64,000 nucleotides of DNA from Alphaproteobacteria bacterium (GTDB lineage: Bacteria; Pseudomonadota; Alphaproteobacteria; MPNO01), in contig OZ219866.1 of NCBI GenBank assembly GCA_964291675.2, positions 1,088,001 to 1,152,000 on the forward strand, written 5' to 3'. Made by a program: the position numbers and the translations under genes. Of the stretch, positions 20,112 through 53,040 are shown one piece after another (position 1 is the stretch's first letter; each line of letters begins with the position of its first letter). Under the pieces are notes generated by a model. It searched no databases, was not told the origin of the DNA, and saw only the letters and a program-made list of their open reading frames with translations.

Positions 20112-20144
20112 CGCGCGCCGGGAAGGCGTCGATCGACGTCCGGT

Positions 20145-20645
20145 TTCCGCGGGCGCGAGCAGGGTCGCGTTGCCCCCGGCCGCCGTCCTGTCCACGCATA
20201 GATGGCGTTCGACGACGTGGCGCTCCGGCGCGGACGAGTCCGCGATCGGGGGCGGGATCGGCCCCGCGCGCCGGGCCGGCGCGACGCGGATCGCGGCGAG
20301 GACATCCGGGTCGGCGCCGCAGGCGACGGCGGCGACACCCTCCGGCGTGGCGAGCATTTGCGGAAAAACCTGCCCGTCGAGGATCGCCGCATGCGGGTCC
20401 GGGGCGCGGCCGGCGAGGGCCGCCTCGATACCGTCGGCGACCGCGACCGCGGCATTGCCCGCGTCCCGGGCCGCCGCGCGCTGCCCGTCCGCCGCCTCCG
20501 CGCCCGGACCGAGGCAGAGGACCGCCCCCCGCGGCGCATAGGAGAGCAGGTTCGACTCGCCGGTCGCCTGGTGCGCGTATAAGCGGGCGAAATCGCACGC
20601 CTCGCGCAGCTCCGCCACGCAGCCCGCCCGGGTCTTGCCGGCCTC
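20145..20645 (-). pseudogene. putA: internally deleted remnant of bifunctional PutA (P5C dehydrogenase part)
   Basis: EAGKT...ELREACDFARLYA joined directly to TGESN...LCLGP...ERHLCVDRTAAGGNATLL; no normal start or stop. Confidence 0.75.
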
Positions 20646-20747
20646 GCCGGGTTGCGAATTTCCCTGCCCCCGTCCGGGCGGCGGCATCGAACGGCTCTCC
20701 GAACGGGCCCGGATTGGCGGTTCGCGAGATATTGTTGAAGGAATGTC

Positions 20748-20761
20748 GATTGTCTACAATC
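20748..20761. promoter_or_regulatory. GntR/FadR-type operator palindrome
   Basis: GATTGT-CT-ACAATC inverted repeat 40 nt upstream of the SBP start; operon ends in a GntR gene. Confidence 0.55.
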
Positions 20762-20800
20762 CTAATATCGCCACGGTGTGTCGTTGCAAGGGAGGTAGAC

Positions 20801-21640
20801 GTGCTGAAACGGATTCTCGGGACGGCGGCGGCATTCGCGCTTGCCCTGTCCATCCTGTTCCCGGCAGCCGAAGGCGCTCGGGCGCAGTCGGCATCGACCT
20901 GGCAGGCGATCAAGGAACGCGGCAGCCTGCGGGTCGGCGTGACCCAGGCGCCGCCCTGGTTCTTCAAGCAGCCGGGCGGCAGCGAATGGACCGGGCTCGG
21001 ATCGGCGGTCGGAAAGGCCATGGCCAAGGAGATCGGCGTCGAGTTCGAGCCCGTCGAAGTGACCTGGGGCACCGCCGTCGCGGCGCTCCAGGCCAACAAG
21101 ATCGACATCATGTTCGTGCTCGACGCAACGCCCAAGCGTGCGCTCGCGATCGACTTCCCGGCGCAGCCGCTGCTGTACTACGCGCTGGCGGTCCTGGCCG
21201 ACGACAAGCTGGCCGTGAAGAGCTGGTCCGACCTCAACAAGCCGGGAATCAAGATCGCGGTGACCCAGGGAACGACCATGGACCGCTATGTCAGCGCCCG
21301 GTTGACCGAGGCGACCATCCTGCGCTTCCCGACCAACGGGGAATCGGTGGCGGCGTTCCAGTCGCGCCGGGTGAACGCGGTGTCCCTGTTCCATCCGCCG
21401 CTCATCGCCATGCGCAAGAAGATCGGCCGCGGCAAGATCGTCCTGCCGGTCCCGATACGGCAGTCGGCCTCCTCGGCCGGTGTCAGGCGCGAGGCCGACA
21501 AGACGTTCCGGGACTGGGTGAACACCGCGATCGCCTACTACTACGCGACCGGCCAGACGCAGGTCTGGTACCAGGACTTCCTGGAGTCCTTCGGCGTCGA
21601 TCCGGCGACGGTTCCGGCCATCCGCCGCGAAGACTGGTAG
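20801..21640 (+). CDS. polar amino acid ABC transporter substrate-binding protein
   Basis: GGAGG RBS + GTG; signal peptide; IKERGSLRVG, ALQANKIDI, TPKRA, IAVTQGTT. Confidence 0.9.
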   Translation: MLKRILGTAAAFALALSILFPAAEGARAQSASTWQAIKERGSLRVGVTQAPPWFFKQPGGSEWTGLGSAVGKAMAKEIGVEFEPVEVTWGTAVAALQANKIDIMFVLDATPKRALAIDFPAQPLLYYALAVLADDKLAVKSWSDLNKPGIKIAVTQGTTMDRYVSARLTEATILRFPTNGESVAAFQSRRVNAVSLFHPPLIAMRKKIGRGKIVLPVPIRQSASSAGVRREADKTFRDWVNTAIAYYYATGQTQVWYQDFLESFGVDPATVPAIRREDW

Positions 21641-21650
21641 CCGGTCGGGA

Positions 21651-21676
21651 CCGGGCGGGGCGCGCGCCCCGCCCGG
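21651..21676. other. 26-bp perfect palindrome after SBP gene (mRNA-stabilising hairpin)
   Basis: CCGGGCGGGGCGCGCGCCCCGCCCGG is self-complementary. Confidence 0.45.
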
Positions 21677-21706
21677 ACGGCGCGCCCGGCGGACGGGGGC
21701 ACGGCG

Positions 21707-22387
21707 TTGGGCTACGAATGGGACTTCGCGATCGTCTTCCGCGAATGGGGCCTGCTGTTCCAGGGTCTCGTCAACACCCTCAAGGTCACCGGCCTGGCGC
21801 TCGCGTTCGGGGTGCCGCTGGGCCTGGCGCTCTCGCTTTGCCGCCTGTTCGGCCCCGCGGTCGTGCGGGTTCCGGTCGGTGTCGTCATCGAGTTCCTGCG
21901 CACCACCCCGCCCATCGCCCAGCTGTTCTGGTTCTTCTTCGCGCTGCCGATCCTGATCGGGGTGGAGATCGACCCGTTCGCGGCGTCGGTGCTGACATTC
22001 TCGCTCCAGTCGTCGGCCTTCTTCGCCGAGGTCTTCCGCGGCGGCATCCTCTCGGTCGAGCAGGGCCAGTGGGAGGCCGCCAAGGCGCTGGGCATGGGCC
22101 GCAACCCGGCGCTGCGCCGGATAATCCTGCCGCAGGCGGTGAAGCGGATGATCCCGGCGTTTCTGGAGCGCGCCATCGAACTGATGAAGACGACCACCCT
22201 GGTCAGCACCATCTCCTACGCCGACCTGCTCTATCAGGCGAACAACATCGCGCAGTCGACCTACCGGGCCCTCGAAGTCTTCACCGTCGCCGCCGGCATG
22301 TACTTCATCGTGATATTCGCCTGCTCGCTGGGCGTGCGCGTGCTGGAGAGGCATCTCGGGCGAACCGGCGAGCTGACCGTGGGCTAG
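21707..22387 (+). CDS. amino acid ABC transporter permease
   Basis: EFLRTTP, AEVFRGGI.S...GQWEAAKALG, ILPQA. Confidence 0.92.
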   Translation: MGYEWDFAIVFREWGLLFQGLVNTLKVTGLALAFGVPLGLALSLCRLFGPAVVRVPVGVVIEFLRTTPPIAQLFWFFFALPILIGVEIDPFAASVLTFSLQSSAFFAEVFRGGILSVEQGQWEAAKALGMGRNPALRRIILPQAVKRMIPAFLERAIELMKTTTLVSTISYADLLYQANNIAQSTYRALEVFTVAAGMYFIVIFACSLGVRVLERHLGRTGELTVG

Positions 22388-22392
22388 GCCGG

Positions 22393-23061
22393 ATGTTCGA
22401 GCACAGCTGGGATTTTTCCGCGGTCTACGGCAATTGGCCGGTCCTGCTTCTGGGGCTCCGCAATACGGTGATTCTCGCCGTCACCTGCCTGTCGGCGGGG
22501 CTGTTCCTCGGCCTGTTCGTCGGCATGGCCCGCTATTCGAGCCGGCCGCTGCTGAACTGGCCGGCGACGGCCTTCGTCGAGGTGTTCCGCAACACGCCGG
22601 TCCTCGTCCAGATCATGTGGTTCTTCTTCGCGTTTCCGATCGTTTCGCCCTTCGACATCGATGCCTTCACGGCGGCGACGCTCGGCCTCACCCTGAACAC
22701 GGTCGCGTTCTCTTCGGAAATCTATCGCGCCGGCATCCAGTCGATCCACCGCGGCCAATGGGAGGCGGCCAGGGCGCTGGGCATGCGGTATGCCGACCAG
22801 ATGCGGCGGATCATACTGCCCCAGGCGGTGCGCAGAATGATCCCGGCCTTCATGAACCGGGTCGTGGAGCTGGTGAAGATGACGTCGCTCGCGTCGGTGA
22901 TCGCCTATGGCGAGCTGATGCACCAGGCAAAGACGATTTCGACCATCTCGTTCAATCCGATCGAGACCTATACCGCCATCGCGATCGTATTCTTTGTGCT
23001 GATCTATCCGTTGACGATCGCCGTGGGCAGGCTGGAACTGCGATCGAGGCACGGGAACTGA
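22393..23061 (+). CDS. amino acid ABC transporter permease
   Basis: EVFRNTP, SEIYRAGI...GQWEAARALGM, ILPQA. Confidence 0.92.
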   Translation: MFEHSWDFSAVYGNWPVLLLGLRNTVILAVTCLSAGLFLGLFVGMARYSSRPLLNWPATAFVEVFRNTPVLVQIMWFFFAFPIVSPFDIDAFTAATLGLTLNTVAFSSEIYRAGIQSIHRGQWEAARALGMRYADQMRRIILPQAVRRMIPAFMNRVVELVKMTSLASVIAYGELMHQAKTISTISFNPIETYTAIAIVFFVLIYPLTIAVGRLELRSRHGN

Positions 23062-23065
23062 CGGC

Positions 23066-23851
23066 ATGACGGCGGTCCTCGAAATTCGCAACCTGAGCAA
23101 GTCGTTCGGGAACCTGACCGTCCTGGACGGCATCGACCTGAAGATCGGCAAGGGCGAGACGGTGGTCGTCCTGGGCGCCTCCGGTTCCGGGAAATCCACC
23201 CTGCTTCGTTGCGTCAACTTCCTGGAGATCCCGACCGGGGGCCGGATCGTTCTCGGCGGCGAGACGGTCGGCCGGACGGCGGGGGAGAGGACGGTCTACG
23301 CCGAGAAGGAGCTCTCCGCGCTGCGCGCCCGGGTCGGCATGGTGTTCCAGCACTTCCACCTGTTTCCGCACATGACGGTCCAGCAGAACGTGATGGAGGG
23401 GCCGCGCACCGTGCTCAGGCGCCGGCACGAGGAATGCGAGGCGAGGGCCCTGCGCTATCTGGACAAGGTGGGGCTGGGCTGGAAGAAGGACGCCTTTCCC
23501 TCGGAGCTGTCCGGCGGGCAGCAGCAGCGCGTCGCCATCGCCCGGGCGCTGGCGATGGAACCCGAGATCATGCTCTTCGACGAGGCGACCAGCGCGCTCG
23601 ACCCCGAGCTGGTCGGGGAGGTGCTCCAGACCATGAAGGAGCTCGCCGAGGAAGGCATGACCATGATGGTCGTCACCCACGAGCTGGGCTTCGCCTACAC
23701 CGTCGCCGACCGGGTGCTGTTTCTCCAGGACGGCAAGATTCTCGAACAGGGCGATCCGGCCTCGGTGCTGCTCGACCCCAGCGAGGAGGGAACGCGGAAC
23801 TTCCTGCGCGGTCACAGCTCGTTCCGGCTGCCCACGCCGGCGGCGGAGTAG
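23066..23851 (+). CDS. amino acid ABC transporter ATP-binding protein
   Basis: GASGSGKST, LSGGQQQR, FDEATSALDPE, VTHE. Confidence 0.95.
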   Translation: MTAVLEIRNLSKSFGNLTVLDGIDLKIGKGETVVVLGASGSGKSTLLRCVNFLEIPTGGRIVLGGETVGRTAGERTVYAEKELSALRARVGMVFQHFHLFPHMTVQQNVMEGPRTVLRRRHEECEARALRYLDKVGLGWKKDAFPSELSGGQQQRVAIARALAMEPEIMLFDEATSALDPELVGEVLQTMKELAEEGMTMMVVTHELGFAYTVADRVLFLQDGKILEQGDPASVLLDPSEEGTRNFLRGHSSFRLPTPAAE

Positions 23852-23862
23852 GCGGGATCGCG

Positions 23863-24786
23863 ATGGAAGCCCTTCTGCCCGGCACCGCGCACGACGCCGA
23901 AGACGATATCCGCAACCGCGATATCGGGATCTATGTGAACGGCGAGATCGTCCACCGGGACGATGCGAAGGTGTCGGTCTACGATTCCGGCTTCATGCTG
24001 GGCGACGGCATGTGGGAGGGCATGCGGCTGCACAACGGCAAGTGGGCGTTCTTCGACGAACACATGGACCGGCTGTTCGACAGCTGCAGGGCGGTGTCCA
24101 TCGACATCGGCATGAACCGTCGGGAGATCGCCGAAGCCTTGCGCCGGACGGCCGAGGCCAACGGGATGTCGACCGACGTCCATTGCCGGTTGATGGTCAC
24201 CAGAGGGGTCAAGTCGAGGCCCTTCCAGCATCCCGGCCTCTCGCGTTCCGGACCGACGGTCGTCATCATCATGGAACATTCCAGACCGGTCGAGCGGTTC
24301 GCCAAGCGCGGAATCCGGCTGGCGACGGTGCCGCAGGTGCGCGGACTGCCGCATTCGCAGGACCCCAAGCTCAACTCGCACTCGAAGCTCAACTGCGTCA
24401 TCGCCAGCCTTCAGGCCCGGGCCGCGGGCGCCGACGAGGCGCTGATGCTCGACCCCCACGGATTCGTAAACACCACGAATTCGTGCAATTTCTTTATCGT
24501 CCGGCGCGGCGAGGTCTGGACCTCCACCGGCGATTATTGCATGAACGGCATCACACGCCGGAAAGTCATCGAAATCTGCCGCTCCCACGAAATACCGGTC
24601 TTCGAGAAGAACTTTTCGCTCTTCGATGCCTACAATGCCGAAGAGGCATTTCTTACCGGGACCTTCGGCGCGCAGACGCCTGTCGGCGATATCGACGGCA
24701 CCGAGATCGGCACCGGTTCGGCCGGACCCGTCACCGGCCGGATCCGCGACCTCTATGCGGAACTGGTAAGGGCCAATACGGGCTGA
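23863..24786 (+). CDS. aminotransferase class IV-like protein
   Basis: AKVSVYDSGFMLGDG, HMDRL, GITR, AFLTGT; atypical DPKLNSHSKLN. Confidence 0.85.
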   Translation: MEALLPGTAHDAEDDIRNRDIGIYVNGEIVHRDDAKVSVYDSGFMLGDGMWEGMRLHNGKWAFFDEHMDRLFDSCRAVSIDIGMNRREIAEALRRTAEANGMSTDVHCRLMVTRGVKSRPFQHPGLSRSGPTVVIIMEHSRPVERFAKRGIRLATVPQVRGLPHSQDPKLNSHSKLNCVIASLQARAAGADEALMLDPHGFVNTTNSCNFFIVRRGEVWTSTGDYCMNGITRRKVIEICRSHEIPVFEKNFSLFDAYNAEEAFLTGTFGAQTPVGDIDGTEIGTGSAGPVTGRIRDLYAELVRANTG

Positions 24787-24789
24787 GCG

Positions 24790-25521
24790 ATGAATACCGC
24801 GCTGTCCGCCCTGGAGCCGCTCGCGCCCGCGACACGACGGGGGCAGATCGTCCAGAAGCTGCGGATGCTGATCGCCGAGGGCAACGTATCGCCGGGCGAA
24901 CGGCTGACCGAGATCGAGCTGGCAAGCCGGCTCGGCGTGAGCCGCGCCCCGCTGCGCGAAGCCATACGCGAGCTGGTCGAGAGCGGCCTCGTCGAGAGCG
25001 TCCCCTACAAGGGGCTATACGTCCGCCGGGTGACGCGCAGGGATCTCGAAGAGCTCTACTCGATCCGTACCGCGCTGGAGCAGTTCGCGTTCCGGGAGTG
25101 CTGGCCGAAACGCACGCGCGAGCGGCTCGACGATCTGGCCGGCCGCCATCGCCTGCTGGTTGGCGAGGTGGACGCGAACCGGAATCCCGCCCGGGCGATC
25201 GAGCTCGAGATTCAGCTCCATTCCTGGTGCTACGAAATCTCGGGCCATGCGATTCTTCAGAAAATGTGGGACCGGCTGAAGCCCAACCTTCAATTCTACT
25301 TCACCTTGCACCAGAAGGCGCACAACCGGCTGGGTCCGCTGCGGGACGCGCACGACGTCTATGTCGCCTGCGCGACCGGCGACAGTCTCGAAGCGATGCT
25401 CGCGCATCTCGAGGAGCACATGCGCCAGGGGCTGGAAACGACCATGCAGGACCTGGTGTTCGAGCAGGACGGCGAGCGGCCGGAACCGAGCGACCGGTCG
25501 AGCGACCCGCTGCCGGGCTGA
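24790..25521 (+). CDS. GntR/FCD family transcriptional regulator
   Basis: PGERLTEIELASRLGVSRAPLREAI; FCD-type C-terminus with conserved His. Confidence 0.93.
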   Translation: MNTALSALEPLAPATRRGQIVQKLRMLIAEGNVSPGERLTEIELASRLGVSRAPLREAIRELVESGLVESVPYKGLYVRRVTRRDLEELYSIRTALEQFAFRECWPKRTRERLDDLAGRHRLLVGEVDANRNPARAIELEIQLHSWCYEISGHAILQKMWDRLKPNLQFYFTLHQKAHNRLGPLRDAHDVYVACATGDSLEAMLAHLEEHMRQGLETTMQDLVFEQDGERPEPSDRSSDPLPG

Positions 25522-25552
25522 CGCCGCGGCCGCCCGTCGCACCCCGTCATTC

Positions 25553-25697
25553 CCGAACCGGTTTGCCAAGACCTGCCGGCAAGCCCCTGGCGCGGGGAAG
25601 CCGGCCCCGCCGCGGCGGCCGCTTCCGTCCCCGGGGGACAGCGTTCCCCGCGAAAACAGGTCAACAATGTTGACCATTGTTTCACGTGAAACATTAG
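25553..25697 (+). repeat. composite parS-containing module, copy 1
   Basis: CCGAACCGGTTT (25553), GTCCCC-G-GGGGAC (25627-39), GGTCAACA-A-TGTTGACC (25659-75), parS (25678-93); inverted copy at 32327-32506. Confidence 0.85.
25678..25693. promoter_or_regulatory. parS: parS centromere site
   Basis: Perfect TGTTTCACGTGAAACA consensus. Confidence 0.93.
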
Positions 25698-25879
25698 CCG
25701 CGCCTGAACAGCCCCTCGACGCCCGCGCGGTGGCGCTGCTTCCTGTCGATGTCGGCGCGCACGCGGCGGATCTCGGCCTCCAGCTCTGCGATGTACTCTT
25801 CCAGCTCCTCGATCGACAACGAGTCGAGCTCGCGCAGCCTGGCGGGCGCCTTTTGCGGCGTCAGATCCTCTTCTTCCAC
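25694..25879 (-). CDS. DUF1192 family protein
   Basis: LDSLSIEELEEYIAELEAEIRR...LFR; divergent from quinone oxidoreductase as usual in alphaproteobacteria. Confidence 0.8.
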   Translation of the reverse strand: MEEEDLTPQKAPARLRELDSLSIEELEEYIAELEAEIRRVRADIDRKQRHRAGVEGLFRRG

Positions 25880-25964
25880 CCTGGCCGTCCCCCCTGATCC
25901 GCCTTGCCAGTGTGTCGCCCAGCGGCTAGACAGGCAACCCGTTCCAACCAGCCGAATCCCAGCC

Positions 25965-26966
25965 ATGCCAGAGGCCGTTCCCGCCTCGATGAAGGCGATC
26001 GAGATCACCGAGCCCGGCGGGCCCGAGATGCTGCGCCCGTGCACCCGCGCGGTGCCGCGGCCGGGCGAGGGCGAGGTGCTGGTCCGGGTGGCGGCGGCGG
26101 GCGTCAACTTCCCCGACATAGCCCAGCGCCGCGGCAGCTACCCGCCGCCGCCCGGGGCGAGCGACCTGCCGGGGCTGGAGCTCGCGGGCGTCGTGGTGGC
26201 TCAGGGGAAGGGCGTCGCCGCGCCGGCCTTGGGCGAGGCGGTGTGCGCGCTGGTCTCGGGCGGCGGGTATGCCGGGTACTGCGCGGTGCCGGTGCCGCAA
26301 TGCCTGCCGGTGCCGGACGGGCTCGGCATGGTCGAGGCGGCCGCCCTGCCGGAGACCTTCTTCACCGTCTGGACCAATTTGTTCGACGGCGGGCGGCTTC
26401 AGGCCGGCGAGACGGTGCTGATCCATGGCGGCTCGGGCGGCATCGGGACCGCCGCCATCCAGATCGCGCACGCCTTCGGCGCCCGCGTGTTCGCCACCGC
26501 CCGCACGGCCGAGAAGTGCGCCTTCTGCGAGCGTCTCGGCGCCGAGCGCGCGATCGCCTACCCCGACGAGGACTTCGTCGCCGTGGTGCGGGAGCTGACC
26601 GACAAGCGCGGGGTCGATCTGATCCTCGACATGGTGGGCGGCGAGTATCTCGCGCGCAATATCCGGGCGCTCGCCGTCGAGGGGAGGCTGGTGCAGATCG
26701 CGGTCATGGCGGGCGCCGAGGCGGCGATCCCGCTCGGTCTCCTGATGGTCAAACGGCTGACCCTCACCGGCTCGACGCTGCGGCCGCGCAGCGTGGCCCA
26801 GAAGGGCGCCATCGCGGATGCGCTGAAGGAGCGGGTCTGGCCGCTGCTCGCCGACGGGCGGCTGCGCCCCATCGTGCATGCGACATTCGGTCTCGACCGG
26901 GCCGCCGAGGCGCACGCGCTGATGGAATCGAGCGCCCATATCGGTAAGATCGTGCTCACCAATTGA
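25965..26966 (+). CDS. NAD(P)H-quinone oxidoreductase (PIG3 family)
   Basis: GVNFPD..QRRG.YPPPPGASDLPGLE, HGGSGGIG, TGSTLRPR, HIGKIVL. Confidence 0.93.
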   Translation: MPEAVPASMKAIEITEPGGPEMLRPCTRAVPRPGEGEVLVRVAAAGVNFPDIAQRRGSYPPPPGASDLPGLELAGVVVAQGKGVAAPALGEAVCALVSGGGYAGYCAVPVPQCLPVPDGLGMVEAAALPETFFTVWTNLFDGGRLQAGETVLIHGGSGGIGTAAIQIAHAFGARVFATARTAEKCAFCERLGAERAIAYPDEDFVAVVRELTDKRGVDLILDMVGGEYLARNIRALAVEGRLVQIAVMAGAEAAIPLGLLMVKRLTLTGSTLRPRSVAQKGAIADALKERVWPLLADGRLRPIVHATFGLDRAAEAHALMESSAHIGKIVLTN

Positions 26967-27005
26967 ACCCGCCCCGGGCCCGCCGGGCGCGATGAAAGAG
27001 AACGC

Positions 27006-27623
27006 ATGAACCAGCCCCTGATGCCCAAGGCCACCGCGGTGTGGCTGATCGAGAACACCGCGCTCACCTTCGAGCAGATCGCCGCGTTCTGCGGCCTGCA
27101 CGAGCTCGAGGTGCAAAGCATCGCCGACGAGGAGGTGGCGATCGGCATCATCGGCTTCGACCCGATCGCCAACGGCCAGCTCGCCCGCGCGGAGATCGAG
27201 CGCTGCGCGGCCGATCCGGGCGCGAGGCTGGAGATGGCGACGCAGGACATCCCGCGCCCCTCGCCGCGCACCAAGGGGCCGCGCTACACCCCGGTCGCGC
27301 GCCGCCAGGACAAGCCGGACGCGATCGCCTGGCTGGTGCGCCACTGCCCGGCGCTCACCGACGGCCAGATCTCCAAGCTGATCGGCACCACCAAGCCGAC
27401 CATCGTGGCGATCCGCGAGCGCACCCACTGGAACATGGCCAATATCAAGCCGCGCGAGCCGGTCGGGCTCGGGCTGTGCTCGCGCACCGACCTCGACGCG
27501 GCGCTGGAGAAGGCGGGCTACGTCCCCGAGCCGCCGCTGGAGGACAGCGACGCCTTCCCGGTCGAGCAGCTCGCGCGCACCGAGCCGGACCCGCCGCCCG
27601 ACCCCGATCCTCAGCTCGGATAG
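27006..27623 (+). CDS. trcR: DUF1013 / cell-cycle transcription regulator TrcR
   Basis: PLMPKATAVWLIENTALTFEQIAAFCGLH, KGPRYTP..RRQDKPDAI, RTHWN. Confidence 0.88.
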   Translation: MNQPLMPKATAVWLIENTALTFEQIAAFCGLHELEVQSIADEEVAIGIIGFDPIANGQLARAEIERCAADPGARLEMATQDIPRPSPRTKGPRYTPVARRQDKPDAIAWLVRHCPALTDGQISKLIGTTKPTIVAIRERTHWNMANIKPREPVGLGLCSRTDLDAALEKAGYVPEPPLEDSDAFPVEQLARTEPDPPPDPDPQLG

Positions 27624-29506
27624 CCGGCGTCGCCGAGCGAGTCGGCGATCTCGTCGAGCGCCGCCGGGTCCTCGATGGTCGCCGGCATGGTCCACTCCTC
27701 GCCGTCGGCGATCCTGCGCATCGTGCCGCGCAGGATCTTGCCCGAGCGGGTCTTGGGCAGGCGGGCGACCACCGAGGCCGCCTTGAAGGCCGCCACCGGG
27801 CCGATCCGCCCGCGCACCATGCCGACCACCTCGCCGACGATGTCGCCAACCTCCCGCTCCACCCCGTCCTTGAGCACCAGGAAGCCGAACGGGATCTGGC
27901 CCTTGAGCGAATCGGCGACGCCGATCACCGCGCATTCCGCCACGTCGGGGTGCTCGGCGAGCACCTCCTCCATCGCGCCGGTCGACAGGCGGTGGCCGGC
28001 GACGTTGATGATGTCGTCGGTCCGGGCCATCACGAACACATAGCCGTCCGCGTCGATATAGCCGGCATCGGCGGTCGCGTAGTGGCCGGGGAACTCGCTG
28101 AGATAGGCCTCGCGGAAGCGTTCGTCCGCGTTCCACAGCGTCGGCGCGCAGCCGGGCGGCATCGGCAGCCTGGCGACCAGCGCGCCGATCTCGCCCGGCT
28201 TGCGCTCCTTGCCCGCCTCGTCGAGCACGCGCAGATCCCAGCCCGGCACGGCGCGCGTCGGCGAGCCGTGCTTGACCGGCGCGCGGCCGAGCCCGACGCA
28301 GTTGGCGGCGATCGCCCAGCCGGTCTCGGTCTGCCACCAGTGGTCGATCACCGGCACGCCGAGATGGGTCTCGGCCCATTTGACGGTATCGGGATCGGCC
28401 CGCTCGCCGGCGAGGAACAGGGTCTCGAAGCCGGACAGGTCGTAAGACGCCCGGAGCGCGCAGTCGGGGTCCTCCTTCTTGATCGCGCGGAACGCGGTCG
28501 GCGCGGTGAACAGCGCCTTGACCCCGTGCTCGGCGATCACCCGCCAGTAGACCCCGGCATCGGGCGTGCCGATCGGCTTGCCCTCGAACAGGATGCTGGT
28601 CGAGCCGTTGAGCAGCGGCGCGTAGACGATATAGGAATGCCCCACCACCCATCCCACGTCGGAGGCGGCCCAGAACGTCTCGCCCGGCTCGATGTCGTAG
28701 ATGTTGGGCATCGACCATCTCAGCGCCACCGCATGGCCGCCATTGTCGCGCACGATCCCCTTGGGCTGGCCGGTGGTGCCGGAGGTATAGAGGATGTAGA
28801 GCGGATCGGTGGCGGCGACCGGGACGCAGTCGGCCGGCGACGCGCCGGCGAGGGCCTCGTTCCAGTCGACGTCGCGCCCGGGGATCAGCGCCGCCGGGCC
28901 CGCCTCGCGCTGCAGCACGATGCAGAATTCCGGCTTGTGCCGGGCCAGCTCGATCGCCCGGTCGAGCAGCGGCTTGTAGGCGACGATCCGCCCGGGCTCG
29001 ATGCCGCAGGAGCCGGCGACGATGGCCTTGGGGGTGGAGTCGTCGATCCGCACGGCGAGCTCGTTGGCCGCGAAGCCGCCGAACACCACCGAGTGGACCG
29101 CGCCGATCCGCGCGCAGGCGAGCATGGCGATCGCCGCCTCGGGCACCATCGGCATGTAGATCACCACCCGGTCGCCATGGCCGATGCCGCGGGCGGCGAG
29201 CGCGCCGGCGAACTGCGCCACGCGGTCGCGCAGCCCGGCATAGGTGAAGCGGCTCTGCGTGCCGGTGATCGGGCTGTCGTAGATCAGCGCCACCCGTTCG
29301 CCGTTGCCGGCTTCCACATGGCGGTCGAGCGCGTTGTGGCAGGTGTTGAGCTCGCCGCCGGCGAACCAGCGCGAGGCCGGCATCGCGCGGTCGTCGAGCA
29401 CGCGGTCCCACGGGCGGTGCCAGTCGATGGCTTCGGCGGCCTCGGCCCAGAAGCCCGCGGGATCGTCGATGGATTGGCGGTAGGCTCGGTCGTAGCGCTT
29501 GCTCAC
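27611..29506 (-). CDS. prpE: propionyl-CoA synthetase
   Basis: YTSGTTGQPKG, RDNGGH, DHWWQTETG, AGHRLSTG, LPKTRSGK. Confidence 0.9.
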   Translation of the reverse strand: MSKRYDRAYRQSIDDPAGFWAEAAEAIDWHRPWDRVLDDRAMPASRWFAGGELNTCHNALDRHVEAGNGERVALIYDSPITGTQSRFTYAGLRDRVAQFAGALAARGIGHGDRVVIYMPMVPEAAIAMLACARIGAVHSVVFGGFAANELAVRIDDSTPKAIVAGSCGIEPGRIVAYKPLLDRAIELARHKPEFCIVLQREAGPAALIPGRDVDWNEALAGASPADCVPVAATDPLYILYTSGTTGQPKGIVRDNGGHAVALRWSMPNIYDIEPGETFWAASDVGWVVGHSYIVYAPLLNGSTSILFEGKPIGTPDAGVYWRVIAEHGVKALFTAPTAFRAIKKEDPDCALRASYDLSGFETLFLAGERADPDTVKWAETHLGVPVIDHWWQTETGWAIAANCVGLGRAPVKHGSPTRAVPGWDLRVLDEAGKERKPGEIGALVARLPMPPGCAPTLWNADERFREAYLSEFPGHYATADAGYIDADGYVFVMARTDDIINVAGHRLSTGAMEEVLAEHPDVAECAVIGVADSLKGQIPFGFLVLKDGVEREVGDIVGEVVGMVRGRIGPVAAFKAASVVARLPKTRSGKILRGTMRRIADGEEWTMPATIEDPAALDEIADSLGDAGYPS

Positions 29507-29558
29507 GGCACTTCCTCCTTACTCGGGGTGACGGCCGCGCGACCGTTCTCCGCGAAAT

Positions 29559-29732
29559 CTACCCGGTCGGCACCGTCAGCTTGGCGAGTTCGTCCTTGAT
29601 CCTGAGTTTGCGTTTCTTGAGATCGGCGATCGTCGCGGCGTCGGGCAGCGGCCGCGCGTTTTCCTGGGTCAGCGCCTCCTCGAGCTCGGCGTGGCGAGCC
29701 TTCAAGGAGGCGACCTGCTCTTCGACATTCAT
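29559..29732 (-). CDS. YdcH/DUF465 family small protein (57 aa, below ORF-track cutoff)
   Basis: MNVEEQVASLKARHAELEEAL...RPLPD...LKKRKLRIKDEL; AGGAGG RBS upstream. Confidence 0.85.
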   Translation of the reverse strand: MNVEEQVASLKARHAELEEALTQENARPLPDAATIADLKKRKLRIKDELAKLTVPTG

Positions 29733-29822
29733 CGCCTGTCCTCCTTTTGCGGTCGGCGGGCTGGAATCAGGATACCGCGACCGGCGTTGGATGCAATCGG
29801 AACTCCGGCGCGGCGCGGGGAA

Positions 29823-30392
29823 TCAGGCGACCAGCCGGGACCGCGCCGCCCGGGCGACGGCCTCGCCGCCGAGCCCGGCGAAGGCGGGGCCCAGCACGAC
29901 CGCCGTCTCCGCCGCGTCGGCCTCGTCGGGGGCGATCCCGGCGGCGGCGAAATAGGCGCCGACATTGGCCAGCGCATCGGCCAGGCGGCGCGCCTCGTCC
30001 AGCCCCTCGTCGGGCTCGCGGGCGAGCGATCCCGCCAGCATGAGCTGCTCGACATGCTCCAGATCGACCTCGATCTTGGCGATCCGCCGGCGCAGCGGCT
30101 CGCTGAGCGCGAGCGGCGCGGCGCCGAGCCCGCCCTTCAGCCTCTGGCGGACGGCGCGCACGCCGCGCACGATGTCGCGGTGCCAGTCCCCGACGGTCTC
30201 GCACACCAGGGCGATCTCGCCCCCGCCGAGCGCGCCGCGGCCGCTCGCCCCGAGCCAGCAGCAATAGAGCATCACGTTCACGTCGATTTGATACCGCTCC
30301 TGGAGCGCCAGGCAGGCCTCGGGCACGCCGTCGCTGCCATAGACGCGGAGCGAGAAGTCCCAGAACGGGTGATCGGGAAAGTCGGCCGCCAC
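29823..30392 (-). CDS. TIGR02444 family protein
   Basis: FWDFSLRVY..GV..ACLALQ....DVN.MLYCCW. Confidence 0.85.
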   Translation of the reverse strand: MAADFPDHPFWDFSLRVYGSDGVPEACLALQERYQIDVNVMLYCCWLGASGRGALGGGEIALVCETVGDWHRDIVRGVRAVRQRLKGGLGAAPLALSEPLRRRIAKIEVDLEHVEQLMLAGSLAREPDEGLDEARRLADALANVGAYFAAAGIAPDEADAAETAVVLGPAFAGLGGEAVARAARSRLVA

Positions 30393-30492
30393 TTTTCTGC
30401 CTCCCTGCGGGCATCTCCGTCCAGCCAGTGATAACGGTTCCGGCCGCACTCTGCTATCCTGCCGGCGGACCGTCAGGACTGTTGTCGGTGCC

Positions 30493-30693
30493 ATGGGAGA
30501 CCAGGACATCCTGCGGCGGCGCCTCGCCGAGCTCGAGACCGAACATCGCGACCTCGACGATGTGATCGCCCGCGTTATGGATGCCGTGACCTACGACCAG
30601 CTGCAGGTGCAGCGCCTGAAGAAGCGCAAGCTCCGGTTGAAGGACGAGATCGCGCGCATCCGCGCCCTTCTCGTGCCCGACATCATCGCCTGA
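30493..30693 (+). CDS. DUF465 family protein
   Basis: EHRDLDDVI...[14 protein letters not shown]...PDIIA. Confidence 0.9.
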
Positions 30694-30719
30694 AGCGCCG
30701 CGAAAGGGAGGCGTCGATC

Positions 30720-31235
30720 TTGCCCGCAGAGAGCGAACGGGAGGGTGCGCCCCGGGTCGGGGTGATCATGGGCAGCCGCTCGGACTGGCCGACCATGCGC
30801 CATGCGGTCGACGTGCTGGAGGAGCTCGGGGTCGCGGTCGAGACCCGCGTGGTCTCCGCCCACCGCACGCCGGACCGGCTCTACGCCTATGCCAGCGAGG
30901 CGCGCGGGCGCGGCTTGCAAGTGATCGTCGCGGGCGCCGGCGGGGCCGCCCATCTGCCGGGCATGGCGGCGTCGATGACCGCGCTGCCGGTGTTCGGCGT
31001 CCCCGTCCGCTCGGAGGCGCTGTCGGGTCTCGACAGCCTGCTGTCGATCGTCCAGATGCCGGGCGGGGTGCCGGTCGGGACGCTGGCGATCGGCAGGGCC
31101 GGCGCGCTCAATGCCGGGCTGCTGGCGGCCGCGGTCCTCGCCCTCTCCGATCCGGCGCTGGCGGACCGGCTCGACGACTGGCGCCGCCGGCGCACCGCCG
31201 AGGTGCCCGTCGAGCCGGTCGACCCGGCGGGCTGA
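30720..31235 (+). CDS. purE: N5-CAIR mutase
   Basis: [31 protein letters not shown]. Confidence 0.97.
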
Positions 31236-31236
31236 C

Positions 31237-32325
31237 ATGGCCGATGCGCCGCCCGGCCTCGAGCCGGGCTCGACGATCGGCATTCTGGGCGGCGGGCAGC
31301 TCGGCCGGATGATCGCGCTGGCCGCCGCGGCGCTCGGCTATCGCTGCCACGTCTACTGCCCCGAGCGCGACGCGCCGGCCGCCGAGATCGCGGCGCGGGC
31401 GACCTGCGCCGGCTACGACGATACCGCGGCGCTCGATGCCTTCGCCGCCGCGGTCGACGTGGCGACGCTCGAATTCGAGAACGTGCCCGCCCGGGCGGTC
31501 GAGCGGATCGCCCGCGCGACCCCGGTGCGGCCCGGCGCGCGGGCGCTCGCGATCGCCCAGGACCGCATCGCCGAGAAAAAATTCCTCAACGCCGTCGGGG
31601 TGGCGACGACGCGCTTCGCCGCCATCGCGTCCGCCGGCGAGCTTGCCCGCGCGATGGCCGGCATCGGCGCGCCCGCGATCCTCAAGACCGCGCGCCTCGG
31701 CTATGACGGCAAGGGCCAGCTTGCGCTCGGGCCGGGCTGCGACCCTCAGGCGGTCTGGCGGGCGCTCGGCGGGCGCCCGGCGATCCTCGAGGCGAAGGTC
31801 GATTTCGAGCGCGAGATCTCGGTGGTGCTGGCGCGCGGCCTCGACGGTGCGACCGCCGTCTTCGACACGGTGGAGAACCGCCACGAGAACGGCATCCTCA
31901 GGACCTCGCTTGTGCCGGCGCGCGTGCCGGGCGAGGTCGACGCCAGGGCGCGCGGAGCCGCGCTCGCCGTCGCCCGGGCGCTCGGCTATGTCGGCGTGCT
32001 TGCGGTCGAGTTCTTCGTCGCCCGCGACGGCGCCGTGCTCGCCAACGAGCTCGCCCCGCGGGTGCACAACTCGGGCCACTGGACGCTCGATGCCTGCGCC
32101 GCCAGCCAGTTCGAGCAGGCGGTGCGCGCGGTCTGCGGCCTGCCGCTCGCCGATCCCGCGCGCCATTCCGACGCCGAGATGACCAACCTGCTCGGCACCG
32201 AGATCGAGGACTGGCCGCGCCTGCTCGCCGAGCCCGGCGCGCGCCTCCACCTCTACGGCAAGAACGAGGCCCGCCCCGGGCGCAAGATGGGCCACGTGAC
32301 GCGGCTGTCGCCGCGCACGCGCTAG
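31237..32325 (+). CDS. purK: N5-CAIR synthetase
   Basis: GILGGGQLGRM, EFENV, GYDGKGQ, NELAPRVHNSGH, RKMGHV. Confidence 0.97.
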   Translation: MADAPPGLEPGSTIGILGGGQLGRMIALAAAALGYRCHVYCPERDAPAAEIAARATCAGYDDTAALDAFAAAVDVATLEFENVPARAVERIARATPVRPGARALAIAQDRIAEKKFLNAVGVATTRFAAIASAGELARAMAGIGAPAILKTARLGYDGKGQLALGPGCDPQAVWRALGGRPAILEAKVDFEREISVVLARGLDGATAVFDTVENRHENGILRTSLVPARVPGEVDARARGAALAVARALGYVGVLAVEFFVARDGAVLANELAPRVHNSGHWTLDACAASQFEQAVRAVCGLPLADPARHSDAEMTNLLGTEIEDWPRLLAEPGARLHLYGKNEARPGRKMGHVTRLSPRTR

Positions 32326-32326
32326 C

Positions 32327-32506
32327 CTAATGTTTCACGTGAAACAATGGTCAGCATTGTTGACCTGTTTTTCGCGCGAAACCTGCCCCGAAACGGTAAA
32401 CGCTCTGTCCCCCGGGGACAGCGGCGTCATGCGACACCCCCGCCTTGGGGCGGTTTGTCCGGGCTCGGTCGGGGGGTTGCCGGGCGCTCCCGGGAAACCG
32501 GTTCGG
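32327..32506 (-). repeat. composite parS-containing module, copy 2 (inverted)
   Basis: parS (32331-46), GGTCAGCATTGTTGACC (32349-65), CTGTCCCC-C-GGGGACAG (32405-21), AAACCGGTTCGG (32495-506); 32327-32371 matches the reverse complement of 25653-25697 at 44/45 nt. Confidence 0.85.
32331..32346. promoter_or_regulatory. parS: parS centromere site
   Basis: Perfect TGTTTCACGTGAAACA consensus. Confidence 0.93.
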
Positions 32507-32523: not shown

Positions 32524-33180
32524 CTACAGCGCGCGGCGGCGTCCCCGCTGGAAGGCCGATGGCCGGCGCGCCAGCCCGGAGAGGCCGCCCGCGAGCCGCC
32601 CCGCGCGGGCGCGGAGCCGGCCGATGCGGGCCACGTCGGCGAGCCGGCGCCGCAGGAACCCGCGCGTCGCCGCGCCGTCCGCGGAGCGGTCCTCCAGCCA
32701 CACCAGCGTGGTCGCCGCGAGAATGCCGGCCAGCAGCGCGCGCTTGGTATAAAAGCTGAAATCGTGCGACCGGTCGCCGGAAGCGCGCCACATGCGGTCG
32801 ACCGTCCGGCAATGGCAGGCGAAGCCGAGGCCCGCGTTCTGCGGCATCGCGGCGAACGCAACGCCTCGCGCGACCGCCTCGCGGTGGGGCTGGAGCGCAT
32901 CGAAGCGGGCCAGCACTGCGGCCTCGACCCGCTCGTGGAGCCGCCGCCGCGAAGCCCCGCCGACCGCCGCCGCCATGCGCTCGTCGGCCCAGTCGTTGAG
33001 CGCCCGGAACAGGGCGCGCGAGCCGCCGCGCAGGATGCGCTCGGCGTCGACCGCGTCGATGCCGAGCTCGGCCGCGCCGGCGCGGATCGCCGCCCCGGTC
33101 CAGCCCTCGGACGCGGCATGGCGGACCGCGGCGAGGACCAGCCGGTCCCGCAATTCGCGCTCGGCGCCGCCGCCGCTCAC
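32524..33180 (-). CDS. COQ9 family protein
   Basis: EGW, VDRMWRASGDRSHDFSFYTKRALL, T.GFL.RR; GTG start overlaps def stop. Confidence 0.88.
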   Translation of the reverse strand: MSGGGAERELRDRLVLAAVRHAASEGWTGAAIRAGAAELGIDAVDAERILRGGSRALFRALNDWADERMAAAVGGASRRRLHERVEAAVLARFDALQPHREAVARGVAFAAMPQNAGLGFACHCRTVDRMWRASGDRSHDFSFYTKRALLAGILAATTLVWLEDRSADGAATRGFLRRRLADVARIGRLRARAGRLAGGLSGLARRPSAFQRGRRRAL

Positions 33181-51827: not shown

Positions 51828-51849
51828 CGATATCGGGCCATGGCGGCCC

Positions 51850-53040
51850 TTACCGATCGAGCGCGGCGACGCCGGGCAGGGTCTTGCCCTCCAGCCATTC
51901 GAGGAACGCCCCGCCGGCGGTGGACAGGTAGCTGAAATCCTCCGCCACCCCGGCGTGGGAGAGCGCGGCGAGGGTATCGCCGCCGCCGGCGACGCTGCGC
52001 AGCGACCCCGCCCTGGTAAGCGTCGCGGCGGCCCGCGCAACCGCGACCGTCGCCGCGTCGAAGGGCGGCATCTCGAAGGCGCCGAGCGGGCCGTTCCACA
52101 CCAGGGTCCGGCAGTCCCCGAGCCGGTCGGCGAGCGCGCTCGCGGTGGCCGGGCCGAGGTCGAGGATCATCGCATCATCGGGCACCGCGGCGACCGGCAC
52201 CGTGTCCGCCGGCGCGCCGGCTTCGAGCGCGCGGGCGACGACGACATCGGACGGCAGCGCCACCTCGCACCCGGCGTCGTCCGCACCGGCAAGGATGGCG
52301 CGGGCGGCGCCCGCCATGCCGGGTTCGCAGAGCGATGCGCCGACATCGGTGCCGAGCGCATGCAGGAAGGTGTTGGCCATCGCGCCGCCGATGGCCAGGA
52401 TATCGACCCTGGCCGCGAGATTGCCCAGCAGGTCGAGCTTGGTCGAGACCTTGGCGCCGCCGACGATGGCCGCCAGCGGCCGGTCCGGCGTCGTCAGCGC
52501 CCCCTCCAGCGCCTTGAGTTCGGCCTCCATCGACCGCCCCGCGGCGGCGGGCAGCAGGCGGGCGAGGCCGGTCGTCGAGGCGTGCGCGCGGTGGGCGGCG
52601 GAGAAGGCGTCGTTGACGTAGACGTCGCCGAGCGCGGCGAGCGCCGCGGCGAAGCCGGGATCGTTCTCCTCCTCTCCCGCATGAAAGCGGAGGTTCTCCA
52701 GCAGCAGCACCTCGCCCGGGCCGAGCGCCGCCGCCGCCTGTTCGGCGAGCGGGCCCACGCAGTCCCCGGCGAAGGCGACGCGCCGCCCGCCGAGCGCCCG
52801 GCTCAGCGGCTCGGCGAGCGCATCGAGCGACAGCGCGGCCACGCGCTCTCCGCCGGGCCGGCCGAAATGCGACAGCAGGACGACCGAGGCGCCGCTCGCG
52901 CAGATCTCCTCGACGGTGGGCGCGAGGCGGTCGAGGCGGGCGCTGTCGGCGACCGCGCCGTCCTTCATGGGGACGTTGAGGTCGCCGCGCAGCAGCACCC
53001 GCTTCCCGGCGAGGTCGAGCCCGTCCAGCGAGCGCGGCAT
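51850..53040 (-). CDS. pgk: phosphoglycerate kinase
   Basis: [41 protein letters not shown]. Confidence 0.97.

Follow-up and report, generated by a model that had tools for sequence, protein, structure and literature searches.

As described in the relevant passages of published work, known parS sites cluster near the origin and number up to 20-23 (PMC7333895, PMC7022226), and extra parS clusters are tolerated, in Caulobacter and Pseudomonas, only within ~500-600 kb of the native one (PMC7333895, PMC5815017); the parts of a review that deal with these sites count the variation in parS number, and the cause of the clustering, among the unanswered questions (PMC7333895). Such accounts also describe ParB as spreading ~10 kb in Caulobacter (PMC5815017) and as occupying 7-bp half-parS sites in P. 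aeruginosa, which give narrow peaks spread over the chromosome (PMC7022226), and the KorB clamp of RK2 as being locked by KorA (PMC11790492). Here we describe two parS-bearing modules in a 64,000-nt stretch (the window, with positions counted from its first letter) of the alphaproteobacterial genome G000 (4.8 Mb, two contigs, C1 and C2). We propose, with about an even chance of being right, that these modules belong to a genus-specific, one-directional repeat that arose from the native parS array, probably spreads through one-ended copying and probably continues to load ParB. The descriptive part of this account, which covers structure, spread, polarity, turnover, flank exchange and island junctions, appears from sequence comparison to be very nearly certain.

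The two modules had originally been predicted to form an origin-linked, two-copy centromere, a view refuted by the chromosome-wide spread of their relatives. G000 carries 28 parS sites at 22 loci, 20 of them beyond the two window modules, extending from C2:218 kb to 3555 kb and including C1:337-340 kb. Across the genus, 23-61 parS sites (≤1 mismatch) were found in each of 12 genomes (most of all, 61, in G007), as against 0-7, mostly 2, in 49 other genomes of the order. In three single-contig chromosomes (G001, G008 and G010), 24/33, 23/36 and 23/34 loci, about two thirds, lie more than 600 kb from parB. In G000, too, parS is not confined to the origin region, and the window copies lie ~245 kb from parB; this gene is found at C2:869 kb, after mnmG-rsmG-parA and ~245 kb from the dnaA gene of the window (C2:1124 kb), while a DUF299 gene, which we take to be an origin marker, lies at C2:918 kb. 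In G000 the GC skew is so nearly flat that it could not be used to locate the origin, and the dif-like site of G001 lies far from the point opposite parAB, both of which are consistent with frequent large rearrangements. We also considered an exclusion of parS from the terminus and rejected it: in G010 and G008 the largest parS gap contains the dif-like site, and in G000 this site falls within a long stretch without parS, so that three of four genomes fit, but G001, with a parS 35 kb from its dif-like site, breaks the rule.

Both window modules were recovered exactly as first described, every coordinate holding on recheck. They are 145 bp (copy 1) and 180 bp (copy 2) long, share a core identical at 44 of 45 positions, and lie in mutually inverted orientation about 6.6 kb apart with their parS ends pointing inward, each in a convergent gap (gntR/DUF1192 and purK/COQ9) and at 3.4 and 10 kb from dnaA, within the 3-10 kb first given. 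From outside to inside, each reads outer motif, cap, decayed parS, dyad, 2 nt, terminal parS; the decayed parS, one unit outward, had been overlooked in the first reading. In copy 1, the outer motif CCGAACCGGTTT-N11-CCGGCAA occupies 25553..25582 (+ strand), 74 bp from the cap and as an instance of an extension seen in part of the family, followed by the cap GTCCCCGGGGGAC, of the GTCCCC-S-GGGGAC type, at 25627..25639, the decayed inner parS (10/16, read from the sequence and the unit structure) at 25642..25657, the dyad GGTCAAC-AAT-GTTGACC, the spacer part of a 37-bp unit, at 25659..25675, and, 2 nt further, the terminal parS (16/16) at 25678..25693. The right half of this parS together with TTA makes up an 11-bp core, GTGAAACATTA, which island integrases appear to use at other copies. 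Copy 2 mirrors this order, with the terminal parS (16/16) at 32331..32346, the dyad 2 nt away at 32349..32365, the decayed inner parS (12/16) at 32368..32383, exactly 37 bp outward of the terminal one, TACCGTTTCGGG, a second spacer type of the module family, at 32387..32398 (- strand), the cap GTCCCCCGGGGAC at 32407..32419 and the outer motif CCGAACCGGTTT-N11-CCGGCAA at 32477..32506 (- strand), 87 bp from the cap. Compared with copy 2, copy 1 is missing ~22 bp between cap and decayed inner parS. Promoter-like sites were absent from both window modules, and an Rfam search of the window returned a tRNA as its only match, with no described RNA family for the modules.

Throughout the family the layout is a cap GTCCCCSGGGGAC, a half-parS-like GCGAAAAA, 37-bp units composed of parS and a 21-bp spacer, and an intact parS at the end, abutting a stop codon. 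The spacer holds the dyad, in the general form GGTCARC-N3-GYTGACC, and the distance from cap to terminal parS clusters near 26, 63 and 101 bp (125 modules). The outermost motif, first described as a conserved palindrome, is indeed present in both window copies, but its AACCGGTT form is found in these two copies only; the family form of the extension is CCGAACCG-N-CAA-N-CSGSCAA, seen in 33/124 modules and mostly 87, 99 or 109 bp from the cap. The native array beside parB consists of a double parS with the dyad and without the cap. A perfect parS also stands at the start of rsmG (L114:6379; C2:867878 in G000), and the outgroup G015 has a near-perfect site at the matching place.

These motifs are tied to parS, which they accompany in relatives as well, with order and spacing preserved. 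The exact dyad occurs 16 times in the 4.8 Mb of G000, each time within 250 bp of a parS, a zone that covers at most 0.3% of the genome, so that the association is far beyond chance. Caps with at most one mismatch lie beside parS in 14 of 16 cases in G000, and among 39 exact caps chosen regardless of parS (30 from a set of 87 sites and nine in G000) 37 have a parS (≤1 mismatch) within 135 bp. In 35 modules, inner parS copies have decayed to an average of 7.4 mismatches in 16 positions, as against 0.9 in 14 for the adjacent dyad, and dyad bases G2, C4, A5, T13 and G14 are invariant in 86/86, with almost no compensatory pairs. Dyad and cap therefore look selected, being almost confined to the neighbourhood of parS and outlasting the decay of the parS beside them; selection had already been suggested from the two window copies, in which the outer palindromes are kept and the spacers differ.

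The dyad-parS pattern was detected in 10 of 11 same-genus relatives and in none of 29 other genomes, and a search of 400 further Alphaproteobacteria found no example. A scan of one genome per species gave at least 50 loci, of which 49 among the matches listed were titled Defluviicoccus sp. or Alphaproteobacteria bacterium; the remaining listed locus bears a gammaproteobacterial label, has main open reading frames (ORFs) 85% identical to those of G000, and is probably mis-binned. Sponge metagenomes (runs X3 and X4) contain close relatives of G000. Unplaced lineages account for 13 of 30 metagenome loci; in these, dyad and parS occur without a recognised cap, and the best protein matches to G000 are at ~50-79% identity (11 of the 13 loci giving matches), so that the dyad-parS pairing extends beyond the genus. 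In four contigs of these unplaced lineages (L282, L287, L294 and L301), a dif-like GTCGCATAAT lies 81-93 bp before the dyad-parS. Viral contigs yielded no match.

The modules are strictly polar. According to our own codon-based ORF calls, the parS end faces the 3′ end of a gene in 62 of 68 oriented modules, 57 of them within 40 bp, the exceptions including integrase islands, and the outer end does so in 39/66. A comparison of 14 long copies revealed common outer sequence in every one of the 91 pairs, reaching 172-258 bp with ragged ends in the 45 longest, while the inner flank is common to only four pairs and is otherwise unrelated. Ragged outer and unrelated inner flanks are what one-ended copying from the parS end would be predicted to leave. 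In one module class, the common outer part runs into an operator-like dyad and the first codons of an antitoxin gene; an outward ORF remnant of this long class, considered as a possible transposase, was rejected, as it is the start of that gene. Toxin-antitoxin genes recur outward of modules and upstream of the native centromere (L110, L114, L158, L159, L169, L190 and L275).

Module copies are also gained and lost between species, as seen in a site-by-site comparison. At the purK site, a module is found in G000, G004 and G007, a single parS in G006 and G011 and a remnant in G008, and the site is empty in G001, G003, G005 and G010 (G002 ends at a contig edge, and the site was not found in G009). 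Both window module sites are empty in G003 and G010. The gene purK (31258..32325, + strand), which in G000 stops 5 bp before the parS of copy 2, is abutted without a module in G003 and G001 by the COQ9-family gene (32524..33180, - strand) that is the outer neighbour of copy 2; in G010 the two are separated by an unrelated short insert. At the position of copy 1, the outer neighbour in G003, G004, G007 and G008 is polA, which in G000 is separated from copy 1 by a ~5.5-kb stretch (20112..25552) holding an amino-acid ABC transporter, an aminotransferase and GntR. The order in G003 is polA|DUF1192...purK|COQ9, in the same orientation as in G000 and with no parS in 18 kb. No target-site duplication was found at this site or in other comparisons of filled and empty sites. 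At ~51840-51860 of the window we noted the converse, an empty site where G010 (L139) has a one-unit module.

Loci tend to be paired. Gaps of at most 10 kb between loci (with the native parS in rsmG included) numbered 9, 11 and 9, where 1.8-2.5 were expected. Orientation could be assigned to both members of 18 pairs; all of these, representing 10 distinct blocks, point inward, with none outward and none in the same direction. Twelve of 36 members have their own partner as closest copy, compared with two expected. The window block (25698..32326) contains DUF1192 (25694..25879, - strand, its TAA stop at 25694-96 being the TTA directly after the parS of copy 1), an oxidoreductase-like ORF, TrcR, propionate-CoA ligase, two DUF465 genes, DUF2390, purE and purK. 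We rejected the idea that pairs are cargo cassettes, since core genes lie in the blocks and the window block is found in G003 at an unchanged position and orientation with no modules around it; the orientation of this module-free block also argues against replicative transposition with inversion, unless the block was re-inverted. In G009, the closest relative (95% identical), the outer part of copy 2 is joined to DUF1192, and the 6.6-kb block has thus been inverted at the core; the terminal parS at this junction has decayed. Contig 17 of run X3 (possibly the same organism) has the same junction; in runs X1 and X2, considered for inversion within one population, the contigs end where the repeat begins to be read. 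Synteny breaks relative to G000 are found at parS in G010 (5/12; 1.4 expected, P 0.004) and G009 (5/7; 1.35 expected, P 0.0008).

Integrase islands meet the modules at the same core. GTGAAACATTA occurs 28 times in G000, and its three copies away from parS are half sites, two of which, each together with a module, delimit islands of 46.5 kb (C2:3217780-3264351) and 63 kb (C2:1568855-1632180). Both islands have the core at either end and an Arm-DNA-bind_3/Phage_integrase gene inside the left end, and for the first G009 (L151) has the empty site: core, integrase and empty site in a relative are features of an attB-type target. A survey of integrase positions, covering 20 of 23 matches with three partial matches left out, placed all seven members of a clade at 81-100% identity ~250-270 bp behind parS-TTAA (one with a 1-base deletion in parS); among integrases at 55-59% identity, a parS variant precedes two of 13, including one at the G001 site that corresponds to copy 1. 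This clade is present in 10/12 genus genomes and 0/8 other genomes of the family, and sister integrases in these genomes use other targets. From these positions, the integrase family appears to land in parS itself. At C1:849694 of G000, an orphan right end of an island (half parS) stands at a gene end where L086 has a full module; no left end was found.

The segregation machinery of the genus seems to be intact. There is one strong HTH_ParB match per genome in 12/12, and further matches are weak (E≥7.8e-6) and absent from G000 and G001. The second ParB/Noc-like CTPase that had been envisaged, to be sought by counting paralogues, thus has no conserved counterpart, there being one chromosomal ParB and no paralogue conserved in the genus. 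In an alignment to 6t1f (E 2e-61), ParB retains GERRWRA and the helix-turn-helix, ParA is intact, including Walker A, and SMC was found in 11/12 genomes. All 12 genus ParB proteins (e.g. that of L238) read AGHGRA where seven outgroups have AGHARA or MGHARA, a change that we take to adjoin a DNA-contact position; of the one arginine, one glycine and one threonine that we assume to be parS-specificity positions, the first two are kept and the threonine is an alanine in 10/12. No candidate protein was found that might bind the cap or dyad.

Taken together, these observations suggest the following model. A recombinase, most plausibly a parS-targeting island integrase, would join the parS end to another site at a stop codon, whereupon replication would copy outward from the parS end over a distance that varies; the new copy would often lie 2-13 kb from its parent. 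Such local copying would create inverted pairs, and same-direction pairs would be lost, as recombination between them would delete the genes in between. Gene 3′ ends would be tolerated as landing sites if ParB spreading there meets few promoters, and the terminal parS, dyad and cap would be kept by protein binding, with ParB on parS and further partners on dyad and cap. An intact ParB should load on a perfect parS wherever it is placed, as follows from established knowledge set out in the relevant part of PMC5815017. The identification of the island integrase as the copying agent is tentative, and rather less likely than not to be correct. It is also conceivable, but rather unlikely, that a centromere has here turned into a mobile, directional ParB-loading cassette that has ParB on parS and other proteins on dyad and cap and seeds the whole chromosome, freeing segregation from a single origin centromere and giving a chromosome of many centromeres with ParB domains bounded by inward pairs, and with integrases exploiting and propagating the cassette.

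Several points weigh against the one-ended copying model. No copying enzyme was demonstrated in the searches made, and in particular no member of the integrase clade was detected at E≤1e-60 in G003 or in G007, which has the most parS (61); moreover, the known island junctions leave a half parS (attR) and not a new module. A Pfam scan that covered 58 of the 113 ORFs close to modules in G000, and 68 of the 98 on the outer side, gave integrases, toxin-antitoxin genes, one restriction gene and one IS110, with no recurring transposase among them that would mark an autonomous element beside the modules. (An IS110 transposase lies ~0.4 kb outside a G008 module, at L277:15578-16945.) Purging of direct pairs leaves the absence of outward-facing pairs unexplained, and in six of the 18 pairs the partners are unrelated (neither ranking better than 6). 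Some empty sites may reflect loss and not the state before insertion; in several cases G009 and G010 both have the copy and only G000 is without it. Of the synteny breaks counted at parS, several have intervals 0.9-2.2 kb wide, and the loci had been chosen around parS. Palindrome self-repair or gene conversion could partly explain the conservation of the dyad, and ParB binding of the module is only assumed, owing to the genus-wide change to AGHGRA.

The absence of outward pairs would be accounted for only if the modules formed a selected, chromosome-wide grid of directional ParB loaders, an arrangement that is compatible with one-ended copying but that we consider rather doubtful. Here a cap-bound protein would block outward sliding, and ParB, along with SMC loading, would be kept within the 2-13 kb block between the members of an inward pair, giving many centromeres. 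The size of inward-only pairs is about that of ParB spreading as described for Caulobacter (~10 kb; PMC5815017), the cap is invariant and its distance to parS quantised, outer motif distances step by ~11 bp (87, 99, 109), inner parS copies decay while the terminal one stays, and three of four genomes have their dif-like site within a wide gap devoid of parS. Yet individual sites are freely lost between close species, the terminal parS is sometimes itself decayed, as at the G009 junction, G001 has its parS near the dif-like site, and neither a conserved second ParB-family protein nor a candidate cap-binder was found.

The position just after stop codons raises a further possibility, that the module acts mainly as RNA, as a terminator or 3′ stabiliser of the gene ending there, with parS as a passenger. 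On the transcript strand of both window copies, dyad and T run resemble a terminator, the dyad pairs slightly better on this strand (6.4 vs 6.0 of 7 pairs), and folding is strong (z -2.7 to -10.8). Since any palindrome is expected to fold, double compensatory changes in the dyad are almost absent, and the cap, the inward pairs and the invariant letters of parS would be left unexplained, we regard this as improbable.

Of a classical non-autonomous transposon, either an IS630-type miniature inverted-repeat transposable element (MITE) or a REPIN, a mobile doublet of repetitive extragenic palindromes (REPs), moved by a REP-associated tyrosine transposase (RAYT/Y1), the same can be said more strongly. 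The double-parS core at the native site does read C-TA-[inverted 17-bp ends]-TA-G, IS630 genes are present in 5/5 genomes, and the 3′ niche is that of other REP-like repeats of the genus. Against this, only the double-parS core is symmetric, and the ends of the mobile unit are unlike one another (cap or ragged flank at one, parS at the other); filled and empty sites do not differ by a target duplication; the two IS630 copies of G000 are without module motifs; and Y1 transposase (PF01797) is absent from all 12 genus genomes, with the control positive in 6/14, and Y2 (PF04986) present in one of five genomes (G010). Finally, the fixed multi-protein origin centromere of the original prediction, with a second ParB/Noc-like or anchoring protein, is highly improbable, for although the order and spacing of motifs are fixed, the motifs are confined to parS and the native array before mnmG has the dyad, the modules are spread genome-wide, parB is 245 kb away and single, and both window sites are empty in G003 and G010.

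Other dispersed repeats were noticed during this analysis. A second repeat, present in 20 copies in G000, consists of a promoter-like TTGACA-17-TAGATT site followed by a GC hairpin and a T run, and is often found ahead of small or foreign genes (for example, five in 4.5 kb at C2:3016331-3020850, and at C2:609156 and C2:3117777). Two copies of it are fused to parS modules, and the hybrid stands at different loci in G010. In addition, G000 has nine identical short repeats with a DnaA-box-like TTATCCACA (C1:192376, 530432 and 975080; C2:698897, 703429, 1453617, 3048182, 3346609 and 3528318), one of them next to an IS630 gene.

In the titles and abstract starts of open-access literature that we searched, we found no account of a dispersed repeat that carries parS, nor of an integrase that targets parS. 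The R boxes of integron attC sites carry an AAC/GTT triplet, whereas the ends of the module read AAT/ATT; an integron integrase (TIGR02249) was found in none of 12 genomes at E≤1e-40, a threshold at which control genomes were silent too. IS91/ISCR elements, which move by one-ended transposition, share with the module one fixed and one variable end, but differ in that Y2 is found in one of five genomes only, and MITEs differ in their matching terminal inverted repeats and target duplications, both absent here. The islands resemble other tyrosine-integrase islands in their short direct-repeat core, left-end integrase and empty site in a relative, but their target, half a parS together with TTA, is present in many copies and lies outside genes, where other islands use a tRNA or the end of a gene. 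Like the half-parS sites of P. aeruginosa, the sites described here are ParB-type and chromosome-wide, although they are full 16-bp sites in a conserved module.

Among plasmids, the tandem repeats of F sopC and the P1 parS with its IHF site are examples of tandem and composite centromeres. The module is similar in having tandem ParB sites at a fixed period, with neighbouring sites that may serve a clamp-stopping or bending partner, and differs in being chromosomal and dispersed, with a 37-bp period and partner binding that is only a candidate. As composite ParB sites with partners are known on plasmids, a multi-protein centromere would not be new in kind. Enterobacterial REPs and bacterial interspersed mosaic elements (BIMEs) are lineage-specific mosaics of palindromes and linkers at gene 3′ ends, polymorphic and targeted by mobile elements. 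Ours, too, is a dispersed, lineage-specific palindrome mosaic at gene 3′ ends, but the repeated palindrome is parS, polarity is strict, pairs point inward, and no RAYT/Y1 was found; it behaves like a BIME-type mosaic with a centromere site as its unit, and not like a REPIN, a MITE or an origin centromere.

With the chromosomal ParABS of Caulobacter the system shares an identical parS consensus, a single parAB operon that follows mnmG-rsmG and has parS next to it, SMC, and ParB and ParA that are both intact; the difference lies in the 23-61 sites distributed over the whole chromosome in a fixed mosaic. The sequences point to likely ParB loading far outside the zone thought to tolerate parS, and the repeat offers two candidate sites, dyad and cap, for ParB partners. 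A genus with intact ParAB and SMC and this many perfect or near-perfect sites all round the chromosome is a natural counter-example to the tolerance limit, one that makes the questions of parS number and clustering testable.

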